A DNA stretch of 64,000 nucleotides. Origin: Alkalispirochaeta sp. GTDB taxonomy: Bacteria > Spirochaetota > Spirochaetia > DSM-27196 > Alkalispirochaetaceae. The position numbers and the translations under genes are program-made. This document shows, piece after piece, positions 50,606 to 54,075 of the stretch (the stretch's first letter is position 1; each line of letters begins with the position of its first letter). The notes beneath the pieces were generated by a model. The model was not told the DNA's origin. It did not search any database and saw nothing but the letters and a program-made list of their open reading frames with translations. The stretch covers positions 3,552,001 to 3,616,000 of the forward strand of contig OZ271854.1 of the NCBI GenBank assembly GCA_965601925.1. Reading direction: 5' to 3'.

Positions 50606-51388
50606 ATGGAGCGCATGAGATGTCTGCACGCCGCGACCCGTATCGCGACGATGATCGGAGCGATCGTCGTCCTCGGCGCGTGCGACTGGGATTTGATAGG
50701 AGAGTCGGAAGAGTACGAGGAGGCCGAGGTGATGTTCTATAACGCCGTCGGTTCGTACGGTGAGGAGGCCGCGATAGACGTCGCCGTTTCGTATCACGAC
50801 GACGATGATAGTTTCTTTCTCCTGACCGAGATCGACTATGCCGAACGGGGCGGCTACTACGGGCTTATCGCCGACACGCGAGAGTTTCGCATATACGAGG
50901 ACGGCACCGATCGCGAGCTTACGCGCGGAACCGTCGAGTTAACCGCGGATGAGTACTACAGCGTCATCGCCTACTCGCGAGATCTTTCGGTGGAAGGTCA
51001 GTTGCTGATCGTCCGGGACGGACCTCCGGAGGACGGATCCAACCTGCCCATGGTTCGCGTGGCCTACGTCCCCGGGGACGTCGACGCGGCGACCGCTGAG
51101 TTTGCGATCAATACCGGATCCGGCGGCACACCCGTTTGGAGCGTCTTCGACGGGCTGGATGATCTGGACCGCGGCGAGGTGACGCAGTACGTCGCGTTAG
51201 ATAGCGGAACGTTCGAAGTGGAATTACGGGAGGTCGATGGGGGCGCGGTCCTCGCCGCCCAGAGTGCTACGATTGATACGGGGTTACACTACATGATCAT
51301 CGTATCGGGCTATATCGATGCGACCCGATTTCGAAGCGGCGGCAACGCCGACAATCCGGAACTCCGAATCGACGTGTATCGCGAGTAG
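50606..51388 (+). CDS. Lipoprotein, DUF4397-like beta-sandwich repeats
   Basis: Lipobox VLGAC; two repeats ending 'L....YYSVIA' and 'I..G.HYMIIVSG'. Confidence 0.65.
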   Translation: MERMRCLHAATRIATMIGAIVVLGACDWDLIGESEEYEEAEVMFYNAVGSYGEEAAIDVAVSYHDDDDSFFLLTEIDYAERGGYYGLIADTREFRIYEDGTDRELTRGTVELTADEYYSVIAYSRDLSVEGQLLIVRDGPPEDGSNLPMVRVAYVPGDVDAATAEFAINTGSGGTPVWSVFDGLDDLDRGEVTQYVALDSGTFEVELREVDGGAVLAAQSATIDTGLHYMIIVSGYIDATRFRSGGNADNPELRIDVYRE

Positions 51389-51405: not shown

Positions 51406-52713
51406 TTACGCGCCTACGTCGCCGGCGTACGTGTCGGCCGCCACAGGGGTGCGGATGATCCAGGTGGTAAACGGATTGCGGCACAGCGAAAGCGTCGCGT
51501 TAATCTGGTCCGCGAGGGCCTTCACGATACGCAGTCCGCCGGAATCGAGTCTGTCGATCTCGACCGACTCGGGGATGCCGATACCGTGGTCTTCCACCGT
51601 AGCCGTGAGCCACCCCTCCTGATACGTGAGAAAAACCCAGATCGGACGTTCGGGCAGATCCTCCGCATAGGCGTGCTGAACGACATTGGAGAAGAGTTCG
51701 TTAATGATGAGGCCCAGGGGAATCGCAACATCCATCTCCACCGCGATGCCCTTGATGGCGTCTGTTTCGATATAGAGCGAGGTTATGAGTCCGCTGCGGA
51801 GATAACTCTCGGTAATCGCCCTGACAAATTGTTCGACACCGACAATAGAGACCCCGTCGCTGTCGTGAAACATCTCATGCGTTTTCGCCATCGTCCGTAC
51901 CCTCCGCTCGGCCTCGTCGAGAATCTCGTCGACCGACTTTTCCGTATCTTGTTTTCCCCGTTGCAGGGACAGCAGACTTGCCACGATTTGTAAATTGTTT
52001 TTGGTGCGATGATGGATCTCTTTAAGCAGCATTGCGTTGCGGCGTTGTAACGCTTCGGACTGCTCTAGAGCTTTCGCCAACGCCTCGGTTCGGAGGCGAA
52101 TTTGTTCTTCGAGGTGTGCTTTGCGGTGTTTTATCTCTTGCCACGCCGCGTTTCCTATGGCCCAAAAAATGACACAAATCATTGTTGCGCCAGTGATCCA
52201 AAGCAAGATAAAAACCGTAGGTTGATCTGTCCATCGACCGATACTAATGACCACGGCCGTGAAGTACGACAGGAACACGGGACCAAGAGTTAGAATTGGA
52301 CGGCCGGTGAACTTGTCGTAAGCTAGTCCGAGCGCCAGTCCGATACCAAGAAAAAGTAGACTGGTCAGATCCCCTTGATCCGCTGTGATAGCCGAGGTAA
52401 ATGCAACAGCGAATGGGGCATATGTTTGAATCCATTGGGCTAATGGATTTCTAGAAAAGGCAGTGTAGAAACCAACAGATATCCAAATTGAAGTGAACCA
52501 AACGTTGTAGTGGCGTAATGCTTCAAGATGAGATTGTTCGAAGACAGTCGTTAGGTAGTAAAAAGAAAGCGACACGGAACCGATCGACCCCATCGCAATC
52601 GCAAGTCCAACTGTTTTCTGGAGCTTGCGCACTACCGCATTTGTCGATGACTGCGTGTATATGATTGCTTCGTCGAGCGGTGACTTTGCTAAGTCACCGC
52701 TATCGTTCTTCAA
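51406..52713 (-). CDS. Membrane sensor histidine kinase (HisKA_2 type)
   Basis: 5-6 N-terminal TM helices, coiled coil, LLKEIHHRTKNNLQIVASLL, LIINEL.SN..QHA, D.GIG, GL.IV..L; TTG start 1 bp after the upstream stop. Confidence 0.9.
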   Translation of the reverse strand: MKNDSGDLAKSPLDEAIIYTQSSTNAVVRKLQKTVGLAIAMGSIGSVSLSFYYLTTVFEQSHLEALRHYNVWFTSIWISVGFYTAFSRNPLAQWIQTYAPFAVAFTSAITADQGDLTSLLFLGIGLALGLAYDKFTGRPILTLGPVFLSYFTAVVISIGRWTDQPTVFILLWITGATMICVIFWAIGNAAWQEIKHRKAHLEEQIRLRTEALAKALEQSEALQRRNAMLLKEIHHRTKNNLQIVASLLSLQRGKQDTEKSVDEILDEAERRVRTMAKTHEMFHDSDGVSIVGVEQFVRAITESYLRSGLITSLYIETDAIKGIAVEMDVAIPLGLIINELFSNVVQHAYAEDLPERPIWVFLTYQEGWLTATVEDHGIGIPESVEIDRLDSGGLRIVKALADQINATLSLCRNPFTTWIIRTPVAADTYAGDVGA

Positions 52714-52714
52714 A

Positions 52715-53278
52715 TCAATCGCCTCCCCAGGGGCCCCTGACTATCGGGCCTATTTCATCGTATTTGTCTACGGCTACCGTACAACCAGCCTCAATCCGGC
52801 GTATCAGTTCCGTGCGAACGGCCTCGTAGTCGAACGCGCCGGAAGCGACGGGATTGTATTTACCCAAAGCGGCATCGATTTGAACGTCGCGCTTGTAATC
52901 ATCAAGCATATTGAGTGCGAGCAACGCCATCCCCCGGTCGATAACCGCCGCGTCGCCGCCGCGAAAGTTCATGATCAGCCGTAGCCGGTCGAGGATATCG
53001 CCGTCGTCGGTGGTATCGGCGTTGAAGAAGGGCTTGGTCTCGCGGATCGAGAGTAGGTATGTGCCGAGGTGCGCTACGGCGGTACGGGCGGGCTGATCGC
53101 ATCCGGCGAGAAAGGGAATCGCCGCGATGAGCTTGGCAACCGGCTTCTTCCGGAGCCACTCGAGCTCCTTCGTATCCATGCGAAAGGCGCTACCGACAGC
53201 CTCTGCGATCTCCGGCCACTGTTCCGAGAAGCCGCGCGACGATTGAACAACGGTGTTGGTGGAAGCGTGATGTGACAT
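52715..53278 (-). CDS. Hypothetical all-alpha protein with Asp-rich motifs and C-terminal Trp peptide
   Basis: GGAGG RBS; 187 aa; DTTDDGD and DDYKRDVQID..LGKYN motifs; ends GPIVRGPWGGD. Confidence 0.8.
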   Translation of the reverse strand: MSHHASTNTVVQSSRGFSEQWPEIAEAVGSAFRMDTKELEWLRKKPVAKLIAAIPFLAGCDQPARTAVAHLGTYLLSIRETKPFFNADTTDDGDILDRLRLIMNFRGGDAAVIDRGMALLALNMLDDYKRDVQIDAALGKYNPVASGAFDYEAVRTELIRRIEAGCTVAVDKYDEIGPIVRGPWGGD

Positions 53279-53344
53279 TGAGTAAATACCTCCGGAAAGC
53301 AATGATGTAGTGTGGTGAGAAACTTTGATGATAAACGCGATCTA

Positions 53345-53373
53345 ACAGTAATAGACGTAGCTGGCCAAGTCAA
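53345..53373 (-). promoter_or_regulatory. Putative sigma70 promoter of the 53278-51406 operon
   Basis: TTGACT-N17-TACTGT in an AT-rich intergenic region. Confidence 0.5.
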
Positions 53374-53526
53374 TGAGAAATAGTAGCATTGGATACCCGT
53401 TATGGATATTCATAATTGTGTGGACTCACGACGTGTGCGATTGTCTATCGTGCGATATCGATCTTTGTGATACGGTAGTATAGATTCCAACGTGTGGGTT
53501 GCGTAGGAAACCAGGGAAAAGTGCAG

Positions 53527-54075
53527 ATGAACATGGCGAAGGTCCCATACGGAGCGATCATTGGAGTCGTCCTCTTGATCGCATCGGCCGGGTGCGACAC
53601 GGGAAACGATGGGAACGGTGGATCGGCTTACGAGTTCATCGAGCGCGAGCTCCAGGGTGTGCACTCAGCAACGGCGTGGGTACTCGCTTCGGGATACGCC
53701 GAGGATTGGGTGGGAGCACAGTGGTCAATTCGGCTGTATGATATCGAGCCGACCGACGGGATCGATCCGTGGGCTCTCGGCGCGTATCCGTTTAGTGGGT
53801 ATCGCAACGTCTTTTTCGATGTTCCCAAAGAACCCGACACCGGTTTGTACGAGTTGAGCTTCAGTTTTTCCGACGACGACTTCACGGTGACCTTTTACGA
53901 TCCGGCGGAAAATCTGAACGTGATTGCGGACGAAGGTGCGGTTGAGATACTCGAAATCGACACCGTCGGCGGCACGATCCGCGGGCGTATGCACGTCTGG
54001 GCAAGCGCCGACCGCTCCGGGTACACGATAAACGGCAACTTCTCGGTTTCCATCAACCCCGACGATCTTCCGTAG
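53527..54075 (+). CDS. Hypothetical lipoprotein
   Basis: Hydrophobic signal followed by SAGC lipobox; beta-rich acidic body. Confidence 0.7.
   Translation: MNMAKVPYGAIIGVVLLIASAGCDTGNDGNGGSAYEFIERELQGVHSATAWVLASGYAEDWVGAQWSIRLYDIEPTDGIDPWALGAYPFSGYRNVFFDVPKEPDTGLYELSFSFSDDDFTVTFYDPAENLNVIADEGAVEILEIDTVGGTIRGRMHVWASADRSGYTINGNFSVSINPDDLP

Follow-up and report, generated by a model that had tools for sequence, protein, structure and literature searches.

A conserved spirochaetal gene pair joining an isoprenoid-synthase-like protein with a C-terminal tryptophan tail to a membrane sensor: a possible self-prenylating signal

What does a small helical protein with a near-terminal tryptophan do directly upstream of a membrane kinase in a spirochaete? 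The question is raised by two adjoining genes within a 64,000-nucleotide stretch of an Alkalispirochaeta genome (the window), which an initial annotation had proposed to be a fused "ComQ-ComX" that modifies itself and releases its tail as a pheromone for the kinase next door. The pair and its control elements are arranged as follows.

53369 to 53380, minus strand: 12-mer ending in TTGAC, with exactly two occurrences in the genome, one before each gene-1 copy
53289 to 53293, minus strand: GGAGG ribosome-binding site of gene 1 (from sequence), 10 nt before the ATG
52715 to 53278, minus strand: gene 1 (P0001), a 187-residue all-helical protein with a predicted minimal class I isoprenoid-synthase fold and a C-terminal Trp tail
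52722 to 52726, minus strand: GGAGG (from sequence) inside the Gly185-Gly186 codons of gene 1, 8 nt upstream of the gene 2 start codon TTG
51406 to 52713, minus strand: gene 2, a 435-residue sensor kinase

Gene 1 starts with an ATG at 53278 and gene 2 with a TTG, and a single base lies between the stop codon of gene 1 and gene 2, in agreement with the proposed two-gene unit. The first reading of gene 1 is likewise exact in its 187 residues, in DTTDDGD and LDDYKRDVQIDAALGKYN, and in the ending ...DEIGPIVRGPWGGD. The operon had been given as 51406 to 53373; the gene 2 end is correct, and the right end falls in non-coding DNA upstream of gene 1. Judged by its placement, the GGAGG at 52722 to 52726 is likely the ribosome-binding site of gene 2 and would couple the translation of both genes. 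The TTGAC of the 12-mer is likely the -35 box of gene 1; a promoter scan did not detect the 12-mer, and its presence before both gene-1 copies may be a mere trace of duplication. Contigs from two sequencing runs of one study, which may be the source sample itself, cover the locus with 0 differences. The operon is flanked by genes for a DUF4397 protein (window 50606-51388, plus strand) and a 193-residue protein without a Pfam match (53494-54075, plus strand); both have lipoprotein-like N-termini by eye, and neither was seen as a recurring neighbor. Neighbor clustering across loci found no recurring third gene beside the pair and no linked protease or exporter gene. Its top clusters are antisense frames of the pair and one 9-locus cluster, which is represented by a REC-PAS-HisKA_2 protein and was probably grouped via the kinase domain. 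As had been stated, no response regulator is adjacent: there is none in the 64-kb window, and none recurs beside the pair across loci.

Gene 1 has zero matches in Pfam, NCBIfam, and PDB sequences. A word-based search yielded 153 relatives (120 among the matches listed) and a profile search of 1.84 billion representatives 336 matches at E <= 0.001 (150 among the matches listed). All 36 GTDB loci are from Spirochaetota, in a search seeded with patterns from close relatives, and the three of 30 distant representatives that have a taxon name are all spirochaetes. The gene occurs in 14 of 401 genomes sampled across the phylum, in 15 of 17 from its own genus, and in 19 of 41 around genome G110. Family members are chains of 165-190 residues with identities down to ~24%, and the conservation and tail counts below refer to 319 non-redundant members of 150-230 residues. 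None of 117 members matches PF00348 (polyprenyl_synt), PF05952 (ComX), or PF01040 (UbiA). DUF5685 (PF18937) weakly matches seven of these 117 below the family cut-off (best E 0.006), and no DUF5685 was found in the Alkalispirochaeta genome. In one low-GC genus (g28; L039-L046, L054-L060), all seven genomes carry a DUF5685 gene together with a very distant gene-1 operon, and a D-x3-D-x3-D-like motif is common to both proteins. Degraded copies also occur: gene 1 is frameshifted in genome G305 (L053/L064), where the following membrane-LuxR gene is intact, and in L037 and L038 gene-1 remnants are followed by an ABC-type solute-binding protein gene in place of the sensor.

Two regions of gene 1 stand out by conservation.

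52985 to 53008, minus strand: D91-D92 ... R98, set off by conservation and co-variation, with a putative role
52838 to 52900, minus strand: conserved motif D127-x3-D131-x3-D135-x3-GKYNP-x3-G147, the predicted Mg2+/diphosphate site

The Asp-rich motifs first picked out by eye do not hold as DDxxD motifs. Neither is a conserved DDxxD, because D88 is present in only 28 of 319 members and D126 lies outside the five commonest residues of its column; the 319-member alignment contains no DDxxD column pattern that could serve as a first Asp-rich motif. What is conserved instead reads [D/G/N][Y/H]xxDxxxD, within D127-Y128-x2-D131-x3-D135-x3-G-K-Y-N-P-x3-G. Position 127 is Asp in 240, Asn in 15, and Gly in 54 members, D131 is kept in 297, D135 in 313, and N142 and P143 in 312 each; at position 124, 269 members have Met and 5 have Gln. 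Further upstream, D91 is present in 280 of 319 and R98 in 318 of 319, and R98, from its conservation, is the Arg that likely binds the diphosphate. D91, which co-varies with R65, likely has a structural role. P55, C60, R65, H/N70, G108, and M124 are also conserved, and D127, D131, K140, K82, and S77 co-vary as one site. One subfamily from the own genus (L268-L281), which is paired with a HisKA-like kinase, has Gly at 127, often Ser/Thr at 131, and a more conserved tail (…ALRG-x-W); it may perform other chemistry or be inactive.

The isoprenoid-synthase-like fold that had been suggested is supported by comparison of the predicted fold, as an all-alpha match of moderate Z. MoeN5 is the top match, terpene cyclases are also found, and the first half of UbiA homologs, with four helices, superposes on residues ~90-188. 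In pairwise comparisons, the UbiA, phytoene synthase, and DUF5685 profiles each align to the motif at 52838 to 52900, though weakly (P 0.02-0.09). The match could be a chance helical arrangement with non-isoprenoid chemistry. This is very improbable, as in both structure models 30-46 members of one superfamily rank above any unrelated fold, and the three independent family profiles place the Asp motif on the same 20-30 residues. It is also improbable, though somewhat less so, that the core has lost all catalytic activity and acts as a scaffold or leader, with a tail that is released unmodified or modified by another enzyme and still serves as the sensor ligand. The lost first Asp motif, the Gly at 127 in some members, and the helices missing relative to synthases of 260-330 residues would fit such a scaffold. 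However, R98, D135, D131, N142, and P143 are 93-99% conserved among members down to ~24% identity, and the five co-varying residues behave as in a working diphosphate/metal site.

The second part of the protein is its C-terminus.

52718 to 52759, minus strand: variable tail, residues 174-187, with the W184 codon at 52727-52729; candidate pheromone core

The terminal column of the alignment is Trp in 311 of 319 members. In 251 of the 311 this Trp is 1-4 residues away from the C-terminus, and it usually follows F, Y, or W. The terminal Trp exceeds chance, since only 3.9% of 3606 long reading frames in this genome have a Trp among their last 4 residues. The nine residues before it diverge at a much higher rate than the core does (they share 24% identity where cores are 60-70% identical), so that the alignment of homologs has the predicted form of a conserved Trp in a variable tail. 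An (M/L/I)D-x-I helix of moderate conservation connects core and tail; since it co-varies with L57 and R115, it likely packs on the core. In the best structure model the tail is ordered and is predicted to fold back on the core. In one clade (L009, L071, L072, and about 18 proteins) the family Trp is found at -10, with another Trp at -3 (…LPWEF).

An ordered tail is also what would be expected if gene 1 were a miniature terpene synthase or small-molecule prenyltransferase, with W184 and the tail acting as a pocket lid that sets the shape of a diffusible hydrophobic autoinducer, in a LuxI/LuxR-like circuit with a membrane receptor. The terpene cyclases among the fold matches, the Ser/Thr at 131 in some members, which resembles an NSE/DTE motif (PMC7839719), and the co-variation of the motif-bearing helix with the sensor point the same way, and no protease or exporter, of which none is linked, would be needed. 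We nevertheless regard this explanation as unlikely. The DDxxD that cyclases usually pair with NSE/DTE for ionization is absent, and the tails vary very strongly for a lid that shapes a product. Moreover, the Trp is kept within four residues of the end, and the ~20 members with the Trp at -10 mostly carry the second one at -3, as if its distance from the terminus were under selection.

The reading that we favor, in which the tail itself becomes the signal, depends on the partner encoded by gene 2.

52150 to 52623, minus strand: membrane sensor domain with six helices, not assigned to a known family, common to LuxR-type and HisKA-type receptors elsewhere
51445 to 52020, minus strand: HisKA_2 (residues 232-306) and HATPase_c (331-423) output, from Pfam

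Gene 2 was correctly recognized as a membrane HisKA_2 kinase without a PAS or periplasmic family (HisKA_2 at E 2e-20, plus HATPase_c). The sensor has six hydrophobic segments, and its Lys/Arg placement puts both ends inside the cell. The conserved polar residues are mostly on the outer face, with a few inside (Q80, E115-Y116 at the cytoplasmic face). Linkage was assessed on 158 loci that represent 127 distinct gene-1 reading frames, 103 of which are closed and followed by at least 500 nt. A multi-helix membrane protein comes next in 100 of the 103, as expected from the proposed linkage to membrane sensors, and the three misses are partial genes. The outputs of these 100 sensors are HisKA_2 in 43, LuxR in 32, and other in 14 (mostly HisKA/GHKL-like), while 11 run off the contig. 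Kinase-type and LuxR-type proteins have homologous membrane domains; 33 of these same receptors went into the sensor HMM.

Such tight pairing might also be expected if gene 1 prenylated itself or bound a prenyl diphosphate and stayed whole inside the cell, where the lipidated protein would dock on the inner membrane and switch the sensor, reporting the isoprenoid-diphosphate pool and not cell density. The translational coupling, the lack of a linked export or processing gene, and the cytoplasmic-face residues Q80 and E115-Y116 are compatible with this, as is the co-variation of tail and sensor, which would fit direct contact of any kind. It is rather improbable all the same: several sensors with differing membrane domains per gene-1 copy and sensors without gene 1 nearby better suit listening to other cells, and internal metabolic sensing offers no cause for rapid tail diversification.

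The observations on which this comparison turns begin with the tails. Among 34 HisKA_2 pairs, tail similarity tracks the sensor domain (r 0.30, p 0.001, core and kinase identity removed), and no such correlation is seen for the kinase domain (r 0.03). Among 38 core windows the highest r is 0.28, and kin among the 34 pairs are not independent. The motif-bearing helix of gene 1 co-varies with the sensor too. The same genome also holds a second locus.

C1:2941403-2946216 of G000, minus strand, outside the window: second gene-1 copy and three tandem sensor kinases (L002/L047)

This gene-1 copy (C1:2945662-2946216) is 69% identical to the first, has a quite different tail, and is followed by the three sensors. 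The four sensor domains of the genome are 54-59% identical. As assembled, the second and third tandem sensors have 635 identical bases in common in the kinase region, against 54% identity in the membrane domain, a pattern that would point to recent duplication or conversion. A similar sensor array is found in L124, and membrane-LuxR homologs occur without a gene 1 in the fetched flanks. Elsewhere in the genome, a 437-residue membrane protein (G000:C1:2881044-2882357, plus strand) with a weak sensor-profile match (E 2e-5) and no gene 1 nearby is possibly an unpaired receptor.

The LuxR-type branch adds a DNA element. Of 29 LuxR-type operons, 11 are preceded by the palindrome GTAGAY-N4-RTCTAC; of 52 kinase-type operons, 0 are. 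It is found in all nine LuxR-type operons with an ESTVRN recognition helix and is absent in three with a nearly identical helix. Of 19 genomes that carry gene 1, 7 contain its strict form, against 0 of 22 that lack the gene (Fisher p 0.002, inflated by kinship). The loci with the palindrome upstream of gene 1, often twice, are L027, L031, L033, L036, L048, L121, L230, L231, L233, L235, L236, and L244. In several Rectinemataceae-like genomes, more sites lie ahead of a REC-sigma54 activator gene that itself comes after a WecG/TagA gene, and others follow a second sigma54 activator gene. Palindrome and sites are a candidate operator and regulon. Two kinase-type genomes also contain sites, and both carry unpaired LuxR-type proteins; the Alkalispirochaeta genome has no palindrome. 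More LuxR-domain proteins with the ESTVRN helix, some in tandem, are encoded in system-carrying genomes (L252, L253, L255, L256). The tail variation is pherotype-like and, with the sensor arrays, the LuxR-type outputs, and the palindrome, further supports the signaling reading. The gene pair is very probably a dedicated signal-and-receptor unit.

How does this unit compare with known systems? LuxI/LuxR is a synthase-receptor pair with an acyl-homoserine lactone ligand, and LuxR solos are its unpaired receptors. The spirochaetal system resembles it in the synthase-receptor pairing, the operon-upstream palindrome of one clade, and the unpaired receptors, but its receptor is membrane-embedded and its ligand probably a lipopeptide. 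A class I terpene cyclase was rejected as an assignment: the DDxxD and NSE/DTE set is absent, and across the 319 members the second-motif-like triad alone is conserved. UbiA prenyltransferases share the spacing N/D-x3-D-x3-D ... P-x-x-S-G and an upstream Arg, as in UbiA motif I (local match at P of about 0.02, not significant at the sequence level). They have 8-9 membrane helices, two Asp motifs, and PF01040, whereas gene 1 is soluble, half the size, and has one motif and its own tail as the putative acceptor.

The closest functional likeness is to Bacillus ComQXPA, PalQ/PalX/PalP, and StheQ/StheX, which combine an isoprenoid-synthase-fold protein with an adjacent polytopic sensor, have a Trp 1-4 residues from the C-terminus of a variable peptide, and lack a known dedicated protease, according to excerpts of PMC10853753. 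The ComX168 ending quoted at the outset, ADPITRQWGD, agrees with the part of PMC13731918 that covers it. The identity of gene 1 as ComQ fused to ComX is ruled out by the missing DDxxD, the lack of a polyprenyl_synt or ComX Pfam match, and the non-ComP sensor. ComQ, a Mg2+-dependent Trp prenyltransferase, keeps the first Asp-rich motif and gene 1 a second-like one; ComQ additionally has a pseudo second motif, NDxxx, directly preceded by Gln, a feature absent from gene 1, where the putatively equivalent position 124 is Met. ComQ-type systems use an enzyme of ~300 residues (ComQ: ~290-310, PF00348) and a separate precursor of 52-73 residues (ComX: PF05952) in place of one chain, and the 1-bp gap here leaves no room for such a gene; a genome-wide PF05952 search carries no weight, as it has no match in any control genome. 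The linked regulator ComA has no counterpart beside the pair. ComP carries PF07730 (excerpts of PMC4008528), and the sensor here belongs to a different six-helix family with three output kinds (PF07568, HisKA-like, or LuxR), a distinction drawn from output domains. A further difference is that the spirochaete host has an outer membrane, and the consulted part of a 2014 census reports no ComQXPA outside Firmicutes (PMC4008528). Of the self-modifying fusion with a kinase, the fold, the conserved Trp, and the sensor linkage stand, and the ComQ/ComX identity and the ComP-like sensor do not. The pair likely works in the manner of ComQ-ComX-ComP, but its first motif, its length, the lack of a separate precursor, the kinase type, and the missing linked regulator place it outside that system.

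A precedent for enzyme and substrate on one chain is the fused borosin OphMA, which modifies its own C-terminal peptide before later release; it differs in its SAM-dependent backbone N-methylation, fungal origin, toxin product, and linked protease OphP (both from excerpts of PMC9811515). There is no homology to gene 1, and the architecture alone is in common. The anatomy of gene 1 would fit such an arrangement of enzyme and core peptide, with the tail as substrate.

On balance, gene 1 may be a precursor that prenylates itself and gives up its tail as a lipopeptide pheromone for the adjacent sensor, a reading we hold at slightly under even confidence. Mg2+ and a prenyl diphosphate would be bound at D127/D131/D135, R98, and K140, and the predicted minimal prenyltransferase would alkylate the indole of its own tail Trp, in cis or across a dimer. 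An unlinked protease would cleave the tail after the (M/L/I)D-x-I helix, the released tail would be exported, and the six-helix sensor next door would read it from the periplasmic side and start a phosphorelay to an unlinked response regulator in the Alkalispirochaeta genome. If each signal costs one polypeptide, a small gene 1 would be expected. Prenyl donors are likely available, since the genome carries three polyprenyl synthases and one squalene/phytoene synthase-family gene. The missing linked protease is weak evidence against release, because ComX is cut by unknown proteases (excerpts of PMC10853753) and ComQ plus ComX suffice in E. coli (excerpts of PMC4008528). With the same tentative, not quite even confidence, we propose a Spirochaetota-specific quorum-sensing class with a single-use self-prenylating precursor, the smallest prenyltransferase of the isoprenoid-synthase fold, dozens of pherotypes, a new six-helix receptor family wired interchangeably to two kinds of kinase or a membrane-bound LuxR, and spare receptor arrays that eavesdrop.

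Searches of the full-text literature, with few subscription journals covered, showed no fused or self-prenylating Trp system and none in spirochaetes, in line with the earlier statement that it is undescribed there; the available part of a 2026 review of peptide prenylation has no match to "spiroch" (PMC13290415). As far as found, the gene pair is real, conserved, and apparently undescribed, and it would be prenyl-Trp peptide signaling of a new form if the chemistry holds. Under the alternatives too, a synthase-like protein and receptor family of such spread would be one for which no description was found. If the favored reading is true, ~160 residues and a single metal motif would be enough for a working isoprenoid-synthase fold, enzymes that act on their own tails, a rare class, would gain a second chemistry, prenyl-Trp pheromones would reach a bacterium with an outer membrane, and free-living and anaerobic-digester spirochaetes would have a cell-to-cell language of their own.
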